IMG/VR virus record: IMGVR_UViG_2713897140_000005
Origin: a virus
Lineage: Duplodnaviria; Heunggongvirae; Uroviricota; Caudoviricetes
DNA: 5,496 bases
Strand: one strand, 5' to 3'
The notes under the pieces were generated by a model. It ran no database searches. It saw nothing but the letters and a program-made list of their open reading frames with translations, and was not told the DNA's origin. Of this stretch, positions 1-5,496 are shown piece by piece. The first letter of the stretch is position 1; each line of letters starts with the position of its first letter. Position numbers and translations under genes: made by a program.

Positions 1-333
1 AATTGCCGTACTCAACGCTTCCTGCGCCGCCAGTAATGCACGGCGTTCCAGGGTATCGAAGATGCAGAGTCGGTGACGCAGCTCGCGCGGAAGAATTGCC
101 AGAACCGCAGGGATCAGTTTCTGAATTTTTTCCCTTTGCGCTTTCGTTTCACCTTTTAACCAACGATGATAGATGTTCTGCTGATTATTCCAGTCCTTGC
201 CTGGTGTCAGAGACAATTCACCTCCCCCCTGGCGCAGATATTCTTCAGTAATTGCGTTAGCGACCCACGCCTGCCCTTTTTCGGCTGCCAGGGCTAACAA
301 CACTGATTCGATGTGCTCATGCCTGATTTTCAT
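1..333 (-). CDS. ydaT: YdaT-like prophage protein (toxin YdaT family); N-terminal 111 codons, 3' end outside the window
   Basis: Found by reading the - strand; absent from the ORF track because it has no stop inside the window. ATG at 333-331, open to position 1, translation MKIRHEHIESVLLALAAEKGQAWVANAITEEYLRQGGGELSLTPGKDWNNQQNIYHRWLKGETKAQREKIQKLIPAVLAILPRELRHRLCIFDTLERRALLAAQEALSTAI. Recognised from memory as the YdaT family of Rac-type prophages. Its start overlaps the stop of the upstream HTH gene (ATGA). Not verifiable without a homology search. Confidence 0.6.
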   Translation of the reverse strand, partial: MKIRHEHIESVLLALAAEKGQAWVANAITEEYLRQGGGELSLTPGKDWNNQQNIYHRWLKGETKAQREKIQKLIPAVLAILPRELRHRLCIFDTLERRALLAAQEALSTAI

Positions 334-572
334 GAATCAACCGCTCCTATGCTGTTTTCGCTATGCTTACCGTCTGGGGGGAATACATCGTCAAGTCCAC
401 AATGAGCGCCAAGCCGATTAAGGGTAGAAACAATTTTTCTGCACTCCTCTAGTCCAGGGGTACGAAAATTTGCTTCGTAATTTGCCAGTCGGCTTTGTAT
501 CCACCCTAACTGAACAGCAAGTTGTCTTTGAGACAGCCCAAGCTGTTTTCGATATGTTGAAATTTTGTTCAT
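330..572 (-). CDS. ydaS: Cro/YdaS-like helix-turn-helix (XRE-type) DNA-binding protein, 80 aa
   Basis: ORF track 330..572 (-). The N-terminal 45 aa (YRKQLGLSQRQLAVQLGWIQSRLANYE) is a typical XRE/Cro HTH. GGAGG Shine-Dalgarno 7 nt upstream of the ATG at 572. Stop TGA (332-330) overlaps the ATG of the YdaT-like gene. Symbol given by synteny (divergent from the repressor, immediately upstream of ydaT), not by sequence identity. Confidence 0.55.
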   Translation of the reverse strand: MNKISTYRKQLGLSQRQLAVQLGWIQSRLANYEANFRTPGLEECRKIVSTLNRLGAHCGLDDVFPPDGKHSENSIGAVDS

Positions 573-668
573 TGAAAACCTCCGATGACAATTTTAAACA
601 CACCTTGTGTTATATAGTCAAGCTGTTTTGTGTTTTATGTAAATCACGATTCGTGATACAAGGATGCA
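573..668. promoter_or_regulatory. Divergent promoter/operator region between the Cro-like (-) and repressor-like (+) genes
   Basis: 96-bp AT-rich spacer between divergent start codons. Palindrome AACAC-N5-GTGTT at 597-611; perfect 15-bp palindrome ATCACGA-T-TCGTGAT at 643-657; direct repeats TTGTGTT(A/T)TAT at 606-616 and 628-638. Candidate - strand promoter: -35 TTGACT (complement of 615-620) and -10 TTTAAA/TAAAAT (complement of about 592-598), with the 597-611 palindrome in its spacer. No convincing + strand -35/-10 pair could be placed. Confidence 0.5.
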
Positions 669-1088
669 ATGGAAAAAGAAAACGAAAAAATTGCCGCTAG
701 TAGGCTCAATGACAAAATTGCAATGCGTCTTAAAGAGCGCAGGCAGAAGCTTGGTTTATCTCAAGGAAAACTTGCTGAAATCTGCGGATGGACGCAATCG
801 CGTATAGGTAACTATGAGGCGGGCAGCAGAAATGTTGGAGTACATGACGCTGTCGTATTGGGAAAGGCACTTGGCATATCTCCTCCTGAGCTCCTCTTTG
901 GAGAACAGGAATCTTCTGAATTGTGGTTAAATGAATCCCAACGAAAACTTCTTGAGTTGTTTAACCAGCTACCGGGCTCAGAACAACAACGAATGATTGA
1001 GCTATTTGAAGTCCGGCTAAAAGAAATCGATGAGTATGTAGAAAAATATTTGAGAGGCAGGATTAAAGATAATCCCCCACCGGAATAA
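669..1088 (+). CDS. racR: XRE-family HTH transcriptional repressor (RacR-like prophage repressor), 139 aa
   Basis: ORF track 669..1088. HTH motif RRQKLGLSQGKLAEICGWTQSRIGNYEAG in the N-terminal half, with a C-terminal extension. AAGGA 5 nt upstream of the ATG. Divergent from the ydaS/ydaT-like pair, as racR is in Rac. Symbol assigned by synteny and family, not verified identity. An internal ATG at 720 is an alternative start. Confidence 0.6.
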   Translation: MEKENEKIAASRLNDKIAMRLKERRQKLGLSQGKLAEICGWTQSRIGNYEAGSRNVGVHDAVVLGKALGISPPELLFGEQESSELWLNESQRKLLELFNQLPGSEQQRMIELFEVRLKEIDEYVEKYLRGRIKDNPPPE

Positions 1089-1118
1089 TGATCTTGCTAT
1101 CACAGTAATATGCCAATC

Positions 1119-1142
1119 AGCCCGCTATCAGCGGGCTTTTTT
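1119..1142 (+). terminator. Rho-independent terminator downstream of the repressor gene
   Basis: Stem AGCCCGC (1119-1125) / GCGGGCT (1131-1137), 5-nt loop TATCA, followed by a T-run to 1142. Lies 30 nt after the repressor stop codon (1086-1088). Confidence 0.6.
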
Positions 1143-1184
1143 GTAGCATCATCATATGACACCCACCATAAAACACATTACGTG

Positions 1185-1213
1185 TTGACATAAGAAAACA
1201 AATTGTGTTTAAT
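1185..1213 (+). promoter_or_regulatory. Sigma70-like promoter (TTGACA-17-TTTAAT) overlapped by operator-like palindromes
   Basis: -35 TTGACA at 1185-1190, 17-bp spacer, -10 TTTAAT at 1208-1213. Imperfect palindromes AACAC-ATTAC-GTGTT (1172-1186) and AAACA-AATTG-TGTTT (1196-1210) overlap the -35 and -10 and resemble the 597-611 site. Confidence 0.4.
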
Positions 1214-1393
1214 AAGCATATCCAAACAACGCCCCACCAGAGAACGGCAGGACAATACCTCGAGTTATCCAGTCACTGAACAGGGCTAAGTAGCCAGCCT
1301 GAGGCATACGAACATGACGGCAGTTGTTGATTGATACAAAGCGCAGTAGATAAAACGTTCCGCCACCCGGCGTTAAGGGGAAATGGGGTCAAC

Positions 1394-1549
1394 ATGAATA
1401 CTATCGATCTTGGCAACAACGAATCTCTGGTATGTGGCGTGTTTCCCAATCAAGACGGCACATTCACCGCCATGACGTATACCAAAAGCAAAACGTTTAA
1501 AACCGAAGCTGGCGCACGTCGTTGGTTGGGAAGACATTCAGGTGAGTAA
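1394..1549 (+). CDS. Small prophage protein, 51 aa (positionally like the tiny ydaF/ydaG ORFs of Rac)
   Basis: The ORF track entry 1331..1549 begins at a TTG. The first ATG is at 1394 (MNTIDLGNNESLVCGVFPNQDGTFTAMTYTKSKTFKTEAGARRWLGRHSGE), with a G-rich stretch 5-9 nt upstream. Stop TAA at 1547-1549 lies 1 nt before the next ATG. Function unknown. Confidence 0.5.
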   Translation: MNTIDLGNNESLVCGVFPNQDGTFTAMTYTKSKTFKTEAGARRWLGRHSGE

Positions 1550-1550
1550 A

Positions 1551-1754
1551 ATGAACGAGACAGAATTAAAACACGTTATCGCTCTACTCCTAGAAGATGC
1601 AAAACGCCTCCAGCAACTGGAGCCAAATGCAGGCACTGGGGCACGCATCTGGCTGGCTAAAGAAGCGCTGGAATCTGGCGATTATGATAGCGAAGAAGCC
1701 TTCTACAAAGCAGAAGGCCGTGCAGGATATTCACCGGGTCTTGGCGGGGTATAA
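1551..1754 (+). CDS. Hypothetical small protein, 67 aa
   Basis: ORF track 1542..1754 starts at a GTG. ATG at 1551 is preceded by AGGTGAG (1540-1546), a good Shine-Dalgarno. Translation MNETELKHVIALLLEDAKRLQQLEPNAGTGARIWLAKEALESGDYDSEEAFYKAEGRAGYSPGLGGV. The 3' end overlaps the convergent 98-aa gene by 24 bp. Confidence 0.4.
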   Translation: MNETELKHVIALLLEDAKRLQQLEPNAGTGARIWLAKEALESGDYDSEEAFYKAEGRAGYSPGLGGV

Positions 1755-2027
1755 ATACCATGCGCATTGACTGAATTCGCAAACAAAAACAGACGCGCGA
1801 TACCCGGATAGTCGGTCTGCATAGTCAGATATCTGGCTGCGAATTTGATAAATATCACCGCCCTTTTCGAAAACATAAGTTCCGTCCGGGAGTTGATTAT
1901 ACGAACCATCTCCATGGGGGATCGTTCTCCTGAATCCTAGTGAGAGCATATATTTATGAAGCCCTTCGTAATCCTCTGGCTCAGCATTATATAGTTCTAC
2001 TCTGGCGAGATACGTTGGCATATTCAT
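1731..2027 (-). CDS. Hypothetical 98-aa protein in the sieB-equivalent position; weak pattern-level resemblance to VapD/Cas2-like small nucleases
   Basis: ORF track 1731..2027 (-), MNMPTYLARVELYNAEPEDYEGLHKYMLSLGF.... AAGGAA lies immediately upstream, so the third-codon ATG at 2021 may be the true start. It is transcribed against the flanking + strand genes. The VapD/Cas2 resemblance (strand YLARVEL, helix ending LSLGF, GDGSY, SVFVCEF) is by eye only. Confidence 0.55.
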   Translation of the reverse strand: MNMPTYLARVELYNAEPEDYEGLHKYMLSLGFRRTIPHGDGSYNQLPDGTYVFEKGGDIYQIRSQISDYADRLSGYRASVFVCEFSQCAWYLYPAKTR

Positions 2028-2215
2028 TTCCTTACTGGTTGTGTGAGAACTTCAGTAAAGATACCACCAAAGCCCGGAGGTGGTGAAATAAAACCGGGCA
2101 CAACACGAAGGCGCATTTCCGGTATTCATAAAGAGTCGGTCTTGTCTGTGAAATTTAAATGGTGGGAGTGCGCTTCCGGTTGTAAATAACGACATTGCTG
2201 TGTGAAGTACCAGTT

Positions 2216-2256
2216 GGCGGCATCGGTTTAATTGCTGGCTGATGTCCGCCCTTTTT
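2216..2256 (+). terminator. Candidate intrinsic terminator (+ strand)
   Basis: GC-rich stem GGCGGCATC (2216-2224) / GATG-t-CCGCC (2241-2250) with one bulged T and a 16-nt loop, followed by CTTTTT (2251-2256). The T-run is on the + strand only. Confidence 0.4.
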
Positions 2257-2257
2257 A

Positions 2258-2412
2258 AAGTGAATTTTGTGATGCGGTGAATGCGGCTAAGCGCACGCGG
2301 CACAGTTAAAAGTCATGTTAGTCCTTATTGTTTTGGGTGGGAAAGCCGACTGTAATTGTTAACTGGTTAACGTCACCTGGAGGCACCAGGCACCGCATCA
2401 CAAAATTCACTT
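2258..2412. repeat. Perfect 22-bp inverted repeat flanking a 111-bp spacer
   Basis: Left arm 2258-2279 AAGTGAATTTTGTGATGCGGTG; right arm 2391-2412 CACCGCATCACAAAATTCACTT is its exact reverse complement. The match stops on both sides (2257/2413 and 2280/2390 do not pair). The spacer contains GTTAAC-TG-GTTAAC (2358-2371) and a weak promoter-like TTGTTT-17-TGTAAT (2328-2356). Confidence 0.85.
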
Positions 2413-2533
2413 CGGTGATGAAAGGAAAGAGAAAATGTTGAATGTAGCTATTGAAAACCAGAACGGGTGGAATTATAGTGCACCTGCACCTCATAAAACG
2501 GGTGCCGGGATTAGCACCCCGAAAGTTACTCGA

Positions 2534-2567
2534 GCGCATAACCGCGCTGAAGCGGTTTTTTTATGCG
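2534..2567 (+). terminator. Candidate intrinsic terminator / attenuator hairpin in the leader upstream of the Rha-family gene
   Basis: Inner stem ACCGC (2541-2545) / GCGGT (2552-2556) with loop GCTGAA, followed by 7 T (2556-2562). Outer complementary arms CGCATAA (2535-2541) / TTATGCG (2561-2567). Confidence 0.45.
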
Positions 2568-2591
2568 TAATGCACAGCCACATTCAAATTA

Positions 2592-2669
2592 TGGTGAGGC
2601 GTGCGGGGCAGCCGCAAGGCTGGCCGGGTTCTCGAGTGACCGGTAGTGCTAACCCTGTGCGTCTCACCA
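2592..2669 (+). other. Structured RNA element (long branched hairpin) in the 5' leader of the Rha-family gene
   Basis: 17-bp stem 2592-2608 / 2653-2669 with 14 Watson-Crick pairs plus 3 G-U pairs that exist only in the + strand RNA (they would be C-A on the - strand). It encloses a CAGCC-GCAA-GGCTG hairpin (2609-2622, GNRA loop) and a CCGG...CCGG hairpin (2624-2643). CTCACC (2663-2668) can alternatively pair with GGTGAG at 2693-2698. Confidence 0.4.
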
Positions 2670-2728
2670 CCCATGAGATTAGCACCTCTGCTGGTGAGTT
2701 AATTAACTTATCACTTGAGGATGTCATT

Positions 2729-3274
2729 ATGGCTACTACCCTTTCTCACCCTGACGTAACCATCGAAAATGGTCGCGCCGTCACTACTTCTATTTCGATT
2801 GCTGAGTTTTTTGGCAAGCAGCATCACCATGTTGTTCAAAAAATAGAATCCCTCGAATGTTCTGAACTATTTTTAACCAGCAACTTTTCGCGGGTTAAAT
2901 TCGAACACCGCGGCAATTCTTATAACGCCTACCAAATCACCAAAAACGGCTTCGTTTTCCTGGTGATGGGCTTCACGGGCAAAAAAGCCGCCACATTCAA
3001 GGAAGCCTACATTGCTGAGTTCGACCGCATGGAGGCCGAACTGCGCCAGAATAACACCCCACCTGCTGACAAGATGATTCCGGGTGATGGTCGCACTCTG
3101 GTTGTTCACTTCGACAAATTCGGCAATGTCGAATTCACCGAAACCGTTCCTGATGGCGCACTGGTCTGTACCCTGGAGACTTTCCGGTTTTATCTGGAAA
3201 AACAGGGCTGGACTCTTGTAAACCGGGGCGCAATTAAAAACATGACCGTAGAGCAGTTGCTTTCCTTAAAATAA
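2729..3274 (+). CDS. Rha-family phage regulatory protein, 181 aa
   Basis: MATTLSHPDVTIENGRAVTTSISIAEFFGKQHHHVVQKIESLE... matches the Rha (Phage_pRha) N-terminal signature, and ...GFVFLVMGFTGKKAATFKEAYIAEFDRME is typical of the family. GAGGA lies 7 nt upstream of the ATG at 2729. The ORF track extends the frame to an ATG at 2435 (279 aa, with an AAGGAAAGAG Shine-Dalgarno), but that extension covers the terminator and hairpin above and is unlike a folded domain, so 2729 is preferred. Confidence 0.7.
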   Translation: MATTLSHPDVTIENGRAVTTSISIAEFFGKQHHHVVQKIESLECSELFLTSNFSRVKFEHRGNSYNAYQITKNGFVFLVMGFTGKKAATFKEAYIAEFDRMEAELRQNNTPPADKMIPGDGRTLVVHFDKFGNVEFTETVPDGALVCTLETFRFYLEKQGWTLVNRGAIKNMTVEQLLSLK

Positions 3275-3284
3275 AAATGGAGCT

Positions 3285-3572
3285 ATGGATATGAACCCCA
3301 TGCTTGATTATTGTTTTACACCTGCCCTCAGGCAGACCATCAGTCATACCGGGATTAAAAAATGGCTGTGGAGAATCAGAAAAATTCTCCAGCAAAAAGG
3401 TGACCTGGATTTAATACAATGTGATTACCATCTCTGCAATAAACAGTTTTTACCTGAAAAAGCTTTTACTGGCGAGCTTATTTATATGCATGGAAACATG
3501 ATTGCCAGAAAGAAACGAAAATATTGCAGTGCAGCTTGTGCCGAAAAAGACAAGATGGCACACGAACTTTAA
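3285..3572 (+). CDS. Cys-rich small protein, putative zinc-binding (C-x4-C ... C-x3-C), 95 aa
   Basis: ORF track 3285..3572. Cys pairs in QCDYHLC and YCSAAC, and a basic KKRK patch. GGAG at 3279-3282 is better spaced for the in-frame ATG at 3291, which may be the true start. Positionally equivalent to the small zinc-binding gene (ydaE) upstream of racC-recE in Rac; no sequence identity claimed. Confidence 0.55.
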   Translation: MDMNPMLDYCFTPALRQTISHTGIKKWLWRIRKILQQKGDLDLIQCDYHLCNKQFLPEKAFTGELIYMHGNMIARKKRKYCSAACAEKDKMAHEL

Positions 3573-3646
3573 TTAACTGAATATTCGAAACTGAATTTAT
3601 GCCAGCAATGGCAGGGATTCACTCAACCTTAAAAAAGGAAACAGCA

Positions 3647-3853
3647 ATGAGCATTATTGAATGTGAAATTGAACTTGATGTTATTAACGATTCTCTCGCC
3701 GAATTTAAATGTGGGAATACATTACATAGTTTCATTCAGATTTCCCAAAAAGAAAACGTCACGGTAATTATTGATGACGGTTACGTTCTGGGAACATTTG
3801 ATTGTTGTGTATGTGCCATTAAAGAAATTGCATTACTCACAGCTCGCATTTAA
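3647..3853 (+). CDS. Hypothetical small protein, 68 aa
   Basis: ORF track 3599..3853. The internal ATG at 3647 is preceded by AAGGAA 6 nt upstream, unlike the 3599 ATG. Translation MSIIECEIELDVINDSLAEFKCGNTLHSFIQISQKENVTVIIDDGYVLGTFDCCVCAIKEIALLTARI. No recognisable family. Confidence 0.5.
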   Translation: MSIIECEIELDVINDSLAEFKCGNTLHSFIQISQKENVTVIIDDGYVLGTFDCCVCAIKEIALLTARI

Positions 3854-3857
3854 GAGG

Positions 3858-3886
3858 CTGACAAGAAATACGGTATCAGTTATCAA
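3858..3886 (+). promoter_or_regulatory. Weak candidate promoter upstream of the RecE-like gene
   Basis: CTGACA (3858-3863), 17-bp spacer, TATCAA (3881-3886) in the 113-bp gap before the ATG at 3967. Hexamers are imperfect. Confidence 0.25.
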
Positions 3887-3966
3887 CGACTGAAAGAACT
3901 CTCTCATATCGCATCATCAGTTCGTTTCTTTTATGCAATCTGAATATGAGTTGAGGTTAAAAAACA

Positions 3967-5376
3967 ATGAGCACCGATAAACAAGTTTACCCACTGTATT
4001 ACGAAGCAAAAAATGACAAAGTAAGAAAACGCCTCGGTATTAAAGGCGGTTTTTACTGGGCTGAAGCGAAAAAATTATCCATTGCCATCTCCCGTGGTGC
4101 TGTTGCGATTGACGATGCTGGCTACGATGAAGATGACTTTAAAAAACCTGTTCGCGTCAATTTGCCCGTTGTTGATGACCTCCCACCAGAAGGCGTGTTT
4201 GATACGGAATTCTGCAACCGTTACGAAAAAGGCGGGGAAGATGGCATCACAATGGTATTTATCGCATCTTCTCCCTCTGTTCAGGACAAACCAGCCAGCA
4301 CTGACAATACCAACGTCAACGGCGAAGACATGACAGAAATTGAGGAGAACATGCTCCTGCCAGTTTCCGGTCAGGAACTGCCCATTCGTTGGCTTGCGCA
4401 ACACGGCAGCGAAAAACCGGTAACGCACGTTTCACGCGACGAACTCCAGGCATTACACATTGCTCGGGATGAAGAACTACCGGCTGTTACTGCTCTGGCT
4501 GTTTCGCATAAAACCAGTCTGCTCGACCCGCTGGAGATTCGCGACCTCCACAAACTCGTGCGTGATACTGACAAAGTTTTCCCTAATCCTGGCAATTCAA
4601 ATCTGGGACTGATGACTGCTTTTTTCGAAGCATATCTGGATGCCAACTACACCGATCGCGGTCTGCTGACAAAAGAGTGGATGAAAGGAAATCGTGTTTC
4701 GCGTATCACTCGCACGGCTTCCGGTGCTAATGCTGGCGGCGGGAACCTCACCGATCGCGGCGAAGGTTTCGTCCACGATCTGACGTCGCTGGCGCGCGAC
4801 GTAGCCACTGGCGTACTGGCCCGTTCAATGGACGTGGATATTTATAATCTTCATCCGGCACACGCTAAACGCATTGAGGAAATTATCACTGAAAATAAAC
4901 CGCCCTTTTCTGTTTTCCGCGACAAATTCATCACCATGCCTGGCGGGATGGATTATTCCCGCGCCATCGTGGTTGCGTCAGTGAAAGAAGCACCGATTGG
5001 TATCGAGGTCATCCCCGCGCACGTCACTGAATATCTGAACAAGGTACTGACTGAAACCGATCATGCCAACCCTGATCCGGAAATCGTGGATATTGCCTGC
5101 GGTCGCTCCTCTGCCCCGATGCCGCAGCGTGTAACAGAAGAAGGAAAACAGGATGATGAAGAAAAACCGCAGCCATCTGGCGCAATGGCAGATGAACAGG
5201 CAACGGCTGAAACAATGGAACCGGATGCAACTGAACATCATCAGAACACGCAGCCGCTGGATGCTCAGTCACAGGTAAATTCTGTTGATGGGGGCGGGTC
5301 AGTACTGCGGGTTCCTTGCCAACCGTGTGTGTGGAGAGAAGCTGCCACAGGTGTACCGAGCTCTGGGGATGGATAA
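3967..5376 (+). CDS. recE: RecE (exodeoxyribonuclease VIII) N-terminal-region homologue, 469-aa ORF; apparently truncated or chimeric, C-terminal nuclease domain not encoded in this frame
   Basis: ORF track 3967..5376, with GAGG 9 nt upstream. Segments such as [50 protein letters not shown] and the acidic [15 protein letters not shown] tract match my recollection of the non-catalytic N-terminal part of Rac RecE (866 aa in K-12). No Walker motif. The last about 28 codons ([28 protein letters not shown]) look like out-of-frame junk. Identity is from memory and needs alignment. Confidence 0.55.
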
Positions 5377-5496
5377 ACCGGAACCAGTGGCGAAGGTGTG
5401 CTATGCACAAATGGTGACGCAGCTCCTGAGTCGTGACCCGTTCGAATGCGTGCTGTGTGGCGGCCGGATGGTATACCGCCGGGCCATCGCGGGACT
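5369..5496 (+). CDS. Cys-rich (zinc-ribbon-like) protein, N-terminal fragment; continues beyond the window
   Basis: Frame is open from 5279 to the window end, so it is not in the ORF track. ATG at 5369 overlaps the RecE-like stop (ATGGATAA); an earlier in-frame ATG at 5288 gives [70 protein letters not shown]-x2-C and further Cys suggest a zinc ribbon. Identity unknown (transposase-like or HNH-like are guesses). Confidence 0.4.

Follow-up and report, generated by a model that had tools for sequence, protein, structure and literature searches.

Gene content of the window

The window, by which we mean the whole stretch of DNA analyzed (5,496 nt), is an entire draft contig (JTCN01000219.1, 5496 bp) of assembly GCA_000805815.1, from the enteroinvasive Escherichia coli (EIEC) strain M4163. 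The draft genome of M4163 (JTCN00000000) is that of an EIEC O124:H30 containing a pINV invasion plasmid; it was obtained from paired 250-nt MiSeq reads, assembled into 294 contigs with CLC Genomics Workbench 7.0.4 (PMC4319576). Positions 1-5290 of the window correspond to a Rac-like prophage, with the Rac-like gene order ydaT, two HTH regulators, DUF1391, a Rha/C4 module, ydaE, and recE, and align ungapped with the chromosome of EIEC O121 201805972, the closest complete genome, at 99.96% identity (2 mismatches). The recE frame then runs into foreign DNA 206 nt before the end of the contig, hence within the final stretch of a short-read contig. The features of this region are the following.

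3967..5289, + strand: native N-terminal 441 codons of recE (exonuclease VIII family), assigned from PF06630, identity to O121, and the annotation in relatives
5288..5290, + strand: fortuitous ATG in frame +2 (gttgATG), made entirely of recE bases, with the join directly after it
5290..5291, no strand: breakpoint, with the last recE base at 5290 and the first IS base at 5291, placed from BLAST ends, a five-way alignment, and the native sequences
5290..5376, + strand: continuation of the recE frame into IS DNA, out of frame there, with 28 meaningless codons and a TAA stop at 5374-5376
5291..5301, + strand: last 11 nt of the IS629 right inverted repeat (GGGGCGGTTCA in IS629, GGGGCGGGTCA in the window, 10/11)
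5302..5302, + strand: single g between the IS629 end and ISSbo1, the same as on pINV plasmids (position 3012 of copy L001, described below)
5303..5496, + strand: 3' fragment of the tnpA gene of ISSbo1 (IS91 family), codons 318-381 plus 2 nt, in frame +2 and running off the contig end
5298..5423, + strand: six differences from the pINV copy found by alignment (T5298G, T5307G, A5395G, A5418C, A5419G, T5423C)

Truncation of recE

The recE-type ORF (3967-5376) has 469 codons, comprising 441 native residues, up to ...QSQVNSVD at 5289, and 28 unrelated ones, exactly at the coordinates given by the original prediction, which had described a RecE-like frame ending in 28 poor residues and a stop. The native part matches the Exonuc_VIII family (PF06630) over residues 52-189 (E = 8e-37), and its counterpart in relatives is annotated as a RecE-family exodeoxyribonuclease. 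The exact 469-residue product has a single public occurrence, JTCN01000219.1 itself.

In the alignment with O121 201805972, recE homology ends exactly at 5290, after codon 441. The original prediction had allowed that RecE homology might continue colinearly in one frame past this point; no such continuation is found in the comparison with relatives, the in-register identity to native recE beyond 5290 being 65/206 bases, i.e., at the random level. Native recE reads GATG[A/C]GAAATATCAG[G/A]AACTGCGG... in O121 and four other genomes, which translates to ...VD(E/A)KYQ(E/K)LRAEL.... In relatives, the sequence after the breakpoint is ...VDEKYQELRAEL..., also read as GAGAAATATCAGGAACTG... (EKYQEL...), and the bases that follow ...GTTGATG at 5290 are GAGAAATATCAGG or AGAAATATCAGG.

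These native sequences bear directly on one earlier explanation, namely that a frameshift or a homopolymer sequencing error in the G-run GGGGGCGGG (5290-5298) fuses the N-terminal part of RecE to a genuine zinc-ribbon C-terminal part. The G-run is where it was said to be, and nothing beyond it speaks for a frameshift. The run is absent from native recE after 5290 in the five relatives compared, no frame of the window after 5290 resembles RecE, and the downstream protein sequence is 94% identical to an IS91-family transposase, and this explanation is refuted.

The absence of the C-terminal nuclease domain, also part of the original prediction, is confirmed by comparison with a full-length homologue. 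The RecE homologue of strain STEC309 has 1048 residues, about 600 of them beyond ...QVNSVD. As a positive control, it gives a match to the solved RecE nuclease (PDB 3H4R) over residues 897-1028, whereas the 469-residue product of the window has no match in the PDB and misses the C-terminal nuclease domain. Compared with the RecE of Rac-type prophages, the window thus retains a typical enterobacterial N-terminal region in a Rac-like gene order, but everything past codon 441 is missing from it, and with it the nuclease domain on which the function of RecE depends. In STEC309, recT is the next gene downstream of recE; the M4163 contig, which stops at 5496, contains no recT. As written, the contig encodes a predicted 469-residue N-terminal RecE stub that, if made, would have no nuclease domain.

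Origin of the sequence beyond the breakpoint

Positions 5291-5496 match features annotated as "IS91 family transposase" on thousands of plasmids from enterobacteria. DNA identity is highest with pINV-type plasmids of EIEC, at 97.1%, a value shared by all of the EIEC pINV copies listed, and a BLAST search from the breakpoint onward, proposed by the original prediction as a way to detect an IS or a phage gene, thus returns the end of IS629 followed by an ISSbo1 transposase. On these plasmids, IS629 is inserted in ISSbo1 and the canonical joint, located beside senB, reads GGGGCGGTTCAGTACTTCGGG. In plasmid pCFSAN029787_01 (positions 201625-204135, our copy L001), positions 3001-3011 of the copy form the right end of a 1306-bp element whose boundaries were taken from its other copies; with 99.3% identity to records carrying the annotation "IS3 family IS629", the element is IS629. 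The joint of the window agrees with that of the plasmids at every base outside the private differences. The 11-nt remnant of IS629, whose terminal inverted repeat reads ...CCCGGGGCGGTTCA, was identified through this colinearity and not on its own sequence (10/11). Intact ISSbo1 reads ...aagatggtgaga upstream of codon 318, at the place where the pINV joint has the IS629 end and the g. Since aagatggtgaga, and not GGGGCGG, precedes codon 318 in the intact element, the G-run comes from IS629 rather than from ISSbo1 or recE. On the pINV plasmids, IS629 is complete (1306 bp) and ISSbo1 retains its 5' part, whereas in the window the transposase body of IS629 (orfA/orfB) is absent and the 11-nt remnant abuts recE.

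The remainder of the tail (5303-5496) follows the tnpA gene of ISSbo1 (402 codons) colinearly over codons 318-381; the gene reads TAC TTC GGG... from codon 318 onward. At the protein level, 61 of 65 residues (94%) are identical to residues 317-381 of ISSbo1 TnpA (WP_046891828-type), and at the DNA level the tail is 97.1% identical to the pCFSAN029787_01 copy and 95.9% identical to intact ISSbo1. Of the ISSbo1 transposase, the window retains nothing but the non-catalytic C-terminal tail, with substitutions at conserved residues, and it has no terIS and no orf upstream; judged from the pCFSAN029787_01 and intact copies, the oriIS end would lie about 450 nt past the contig end. It is close to certain that the left side of the join consists of the first 441 codons of recE from a Rac-type prophage and the right side of a copy of the nested-IS relic of pINV plasmids, made of 11 nt of IS629, the g, and ISSbo1 from codon 318 onward.

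These assignments change the meaning of the cysteine-rich frame, which the original prediction took for a new ORF starting at the junction and possibly a zinc ribbon. Frame +2 is indeed open from 5279 through the end of the window and has an ATG at 5288-5290, as reported, but the junction does not run through this ATG, which consists of three recE-side bases. ORFs read through the IS629/ISSbo1 joint in other assemblies as well, and on pINV the frame is open without this ATG; the open frame is therefore an inherited one, to which the join added the ATG by chance. In intact ISSbo1 TnpA, the zinc-binding domain (PF14319) spans residues 19-109 and the Y2_Tnp domain (PF04986) residues 147-327. The fragment of the window starts at residue 318, so that it is missing the zinc-binding domain and nearly all of Y2_Tnp, and it matches no Pfam family; one of its cysteines (codon 5306-5308) is owed solely to a private T-to-G difference. 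We conclude from these comparisons that the cysteine-rich frame is not a gene but a transposase C-terminal remnant, predicted to be inert, with neither a catalytic or zinc-binding domain nor an IS end.

The join at the base level

The abrupt junction noted earlier is real in the deposited sequence and much sharper than chance could explain, the O121 alignment ending at 5290 and the IS match starting at 5291. No base is common to both sides at the join, i.e., there is no microhomology, and a PCR or replication template switch at a microhomology was rejected on this ground. Of the proposed mosaic or insertion breakpoint, one part stands, since this is a true breakpoint that truncates recE and has IS-derived DNA to its right. 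The usual insertion does not stand: the join coincides with the end of neither IS, and no target duplication or terIS-like motif is present at the breakpoint. Simple insertion of an IS, which would leave a 3-bp target duplication for IS629 or lie at a GAAC/CAAG target for the IS91 family, was rejected because the junction is at no IS terminus, and looking for a target-site duplication and for the other end of an inserted element, as first suggested, does not apply here for the same reason. Direct transposition of IS629 was rejected as well, as the target should adjoin the outermost bases of the element (TGAACCGCC... or ...GGCGGTTCA), only 11 nt of an end are found, and the body of the IS would have to sit where recE is.

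The presence of an IS91-family fragment raises a further mechanism, one-ended rolling-circle transposition, which would have started at oriIS, proceeded back through the 3' part of tnpA, stopped aberrantly just inside IS629, and given a product that inserted into recE. One-ended transposition occurs in the IS91 family at a frequency of 1-14%, when terIS is missed (PMC13181058), and the polarity of the fragment fits, with oriIS beyond the window end. We defined the ends of ISSbo1-type elements from four copies in different contexts, in agreement with the family rules (PMC13181058): the elements begin with |GAACCACGGCAGCC... (terIS) and end with ...TTCCTATACGT|GAAC (oriIS and target). Nothing like the terIS left end (|GAAC with the palindrome CACGGCAGCC..GGCTGC) is found at or near 5291. 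The variable end, |GGGGCGG, is associated with neither a GAAC-type cleavage tetranucleotide nor an adjacent palindrome, and the native target, which reads gat|gaga at the breakpoint, is not GAAC/CAAG on the side meant to abut oriIS. We therefore consider this mechanism highly improbable.

Base differences in the tail

All six differences between the tail and the pINV copy are changes from A/T to G/C, and five of the six occur in no other copy compared; 5423C is common to one other type of copy. Their density (6/206, 3%) is far higher than that of the mismatches in the prophage part (2/5290, 0.04%; Fisher p = 7e-8), and the final 73 nt of the tail have none. Two of the resulting replacements, F to C and K to T, hit the motifs RYFGFLAN and KQFL, which are conserved in 30/30 family fragments read, and the altered motifs YCGFL or VTQLL are found in none of the 36 fragment sequences read out of 106 protein matches. 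The variant stretch GACGCAGCTC was not found in the search made for it elsewhere. Another natural IS91-family variant was rejected as the source of the tail, as DNA identity does not rise above 97.1% for any of the roughly 4,000 copies from E. coli genomes or plasmids. This pattern is more in keeping with poorly supported base calls than with a single-copy locus sequenced at about 200x.

One could also take the join for the real scar of an imprecise excision of the transposase or IEE type, with the loss of IS629 except for 11 nt and of the 3' part of recE, and the A/T-to-G/C changes clustered in the next 130 nt for a tract of error-prone repair synthesis. On this reading, which we consider improbable, mutagenic repair after IS excision would have occurred naturally in an EIEC chromosome.

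Two paralogous Rac-like loci

EIEC chromosomes have two paralogous Rac-like loci. In O121 201805972, copies A and B differ by about 4% (130-odd positions) up to the equivalent of window position 5291. Past 5291 the two copies are 100% identical over 883 nt, and then over stretches of 105 and 1020 nt beyond IS insertions. An exact two-copy repeat therefore begins 1 nt away from the breakpoint of the window, and short-read contigs necessarily end at such a boundary. In a related strain, a draft contig of 5316 bp also runs out in this region, its partial RecE running off in native sequence 15 codons past the breakpoint. The left end of the M4163 contig falls in a region that is single-copy in O121 and is not a repeat boundary there, which indicates that the architecture of M4163 is not simply that of O121. 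In all of the EIEC relatives examined, recE is truncated at a different point, with IS911, IS629, IS600, or ISEc60 nearby.

At 5291, O121 keeps the A-type base, which is missing in M4163, and this allele is present in other native recE genes. The possibility that break-induced repair of an ancestral M4163-like junction created the mosaic boundary of O121 is disfavored.

Origin of the join

We propose that the join is most likely absent from the M4163 chromosome and is a chimera formed at a contig end rather than a genomic rearrangement, with a probability of about 0.6. The unique prophage part of the contig would end where the two Rac-like loci become identical, and one or a few poorly supported reads linking recE to pINV DNA would presumably have been threaded on by CLC as a 206-nt tail. 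Such a weak chimeric branch would survive only where the true path turns ambiguous. In the actual genome of M4163, recE would go on in the manner of relatives, forming a pseudogene of 1773 nt with gam behind it, and a putative B copy would lie elsewhere.

Several observations agree with this proposal. Weak reads threaded onto a contig would produce a tail shorter than one read with an excess of odd base differences; the tail is indeed shorter than one read (206 nt), reaches the contig end, and bears six mismatches of a single type, some at conserved residues, against 2 in the 5290 nt that precede it. A breakpoint 1 nt from the start of a two-copy repeat is expected for a chimera, and the related contig of 5316 bp, which gives out 15 codons further in native RecE, behaves likewise. 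The join itself shows neither microhomology nor a transposition signature. A search for the same join in 5,426 complete E. coli genomes, GTDB representative genomes, and JGI metagenomes gave no match, and a protein search with the junction peptide returned native RecE fragments only, in a database that covers only representatives of 90% clusters. On the other hand, the breakpoint on the donor side is 11 nt inside the right end of IS629, where a chimera produced by random ligation or by sequencing would seldom have its junction, as we estimate that roughly 0.1-0.4% of the genome is that close inside an IS end. The single-copy left end of the contig, which points to differing architectures, and the 73 nt without differences at the end of the tail also count against a chimera.

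The main alternative, possible though clearly less probable, is a real rearrangement in M4163. An IS629::ISSbo1 relic of the pINV type would have come to lie beside recE, e.g., via IS629-IS629 recombination with the plasmid, and an imprecise excision of IS629 or an adjacent deletion would then have removed all of IS629 except 11 nt, together with the 3' part of recE, leaving a stub fused to IS debris. Deletions of this kind occur alongside copy-out-paste-in transposition, and the IEE PrimPol stimulates them. This alternative is chiefly supported by the position of the donor breakpoint, which leaves 11 nt of the right inverted repeat of IS629, as is typical of imprecise IS excision or deletion. 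EIEC genomes are also rich in IS relics and rearranged Rac-like loci. Besides, an assembler usually follows the strong path, so that native sequence missing from a contig is most simply missing from the genome.

The comparison with known excision events is mixed. Imprecise excisions or deletions at copy-out-paste-in elements, such as IS629 with IEE or the loss of ISApl1 from Tn6330, also have an endpoint a few bases inside the IS end, and deletion joints of IS629/IEE and ISApl1 sometimes intrude into the IS (bioRxiv 10.1101/2023.06.07.543989). The published joints, however, have 2-4 bp of microhomology and a deletion of about one IS length (bioRxiv 10.1101/2023.06.07.543989), whereas the join of the window has no microhomology and its other endpoint is in an unrelated gene. 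In addition, a private divergence of 3% in the tail is hard to explain at a single-copy locus sequenced at about 200x, and the coincidence with the repeat boundary to within 1 nt would be about a 1-in-1000 accident. The scenario is also a multi-step one, and the join occurs in no other genome. Our preference for the contig-end chimera comes from weighing the evidence for it against the coincidence with an IS end and the prior that contig sequence is real.

Implications for annotation

All of the components found here have been described, namely Rac-type recE, IS629, ISSbo1, and their nesting on pINV, and nothing is new in kind. The decay of prophage genes driven by insertion sequences is the expected state of EIEC and Shigella genomes. 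The junction is an ordinary one and quite possibly an assembly artefact. If the join is true, it adds one more recE pseudogene and a loss of RecET function from a Rac-like prophage. The case calls for caution, as a protein-like, cysteine-rich ORF with an ATG at the breakpoint proved to be a dead transposase tail. Because the breakpoint lies within one read of the end of a draft contig and next to a repeat boundary, neither the annotation of a RecE fusion nor the claim of a rearrangement is warranted without read support.

Similarity to native recE near the join

In the window, a stretch resembling native recE in register (TCAG.ACT.CGGG) lies 9-21 nt from the join, with 7 of 8 bases in agreement at 5304-5311 (ACTGCGGG). 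A match as good is found in 5 of 1442 random registers, which is suggestive but unexplained. The in-register likeness stops at 5311, that is 5290 + 21. For about 1.1 Gb of reads, CLC would automatically choose a word size of 22, which would make 21 equal to k-1, a coincidence from which we draw no conclusion. The private G at 5307 is identical to the native recE base.

Sequence immediately past the recE junction

The recE reading frame (3967-5289) is interrupted after position 5290, and a short stretch of bases beyond this breakpoint, ACTGCGGG at 5304-5311, is again in register with native recE. Within it, the G at 5307, which departs from ISSbo1 by a T-to-G change, is the native recE base, and the similarity to recE stops 21 nt past the breakpoint. 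This match may have arisen by chance, one as good occurring at 5 of 1442 registers, or it may be a vestige of the process that formed the join, either in vivo or in the assembler.

The arrangement of IS629 within ISSbo1 on the pINV plasmids is itself not a clean insertion. In pCFSAN029787_01 (L001 1700-1706 and 3011-3020), IS629 lies between aagatgg and gtacttc, while the corresponding site of an intact ISSbo1 reads aagatggtgagatacttc, so that a single g stands for five ISSbo1 bases (tgaga). Comparison of these flanks with the intact ISSbo1 showed no 3-bp target duplication around IS629. Given this replacement and the absent duplication, the two ISSbo1 halves may have originated in separate events, or a small deletion may have occurred.

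A further lone remnant of an IS629 end, agtctccaggattcccggggcg-ttca, is found at 3077-3107 of L003, a S. dysenteriae plasmid, a few hundred bases 3' of its intact ISSbo1. This solitary remnant shows that IS-end scraps are frequent around ISSbo1.

Paired Rac-like loci

Enteroinvasive E. coli chromosomes carry two Rac-like loci, which we compared as paralogues in O121 201805972 (L002 with L014) and in CFSAN029787 (L011 with L012). In both loci, recE is cut at the identical 1773-nt point and is followed by gam and then by an AAA ATPase gene. The copies within one genome are about 96% identical up to the equivalent of window position 5291 and 100% identical beyond it, a switch that points to gene conversion or duplication between the prophages in the recent past. 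In O121, the IS element that breaks the shared segment differs between the copies: it is IS911 in copy A but IS629 in copy B.

Other features of the prophage segment

Two RNA matches, which together form an immunity RNA module of the P1/P7 type, were found in the window:

2486-2562, plus strand, isrK (Rfam match, 68.5 bits, above the gathering score)
2587-2674, plus strand, C4 antisense RNA (Rfam match, 78.6 bits, above the gathering score)

Both lie within the 5' third of ORF 2435-3274, for which relatives carry the annotation 'Rha family phage regulatory protein' (279 aa). The true start of this ORF is probably downstream of the annotated one, the genuine Rha/antirepressor frame likely beginning 3' of the two RNAs.

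Position 3851 is one of just two mismatches to O121 201805972 across 5290 nt. This G-to-T change converts GAA into a TAA stop, and the 'DNA breaking-rejoining protein' ORF is therefore cut to 84 aa (3599-3853), compared to 114 aa in O121 (window-equivalent 3599-3943).

The left end of the contig falls inside ydaT (1-333, minus strand), which is native from base 1, with no foreign or repeat bases in 1-333. Since the flank is single-copy in O121 201805972, ydaT of strain M4163 probably holds an IS insertion or rearrangement outside the visible contig.
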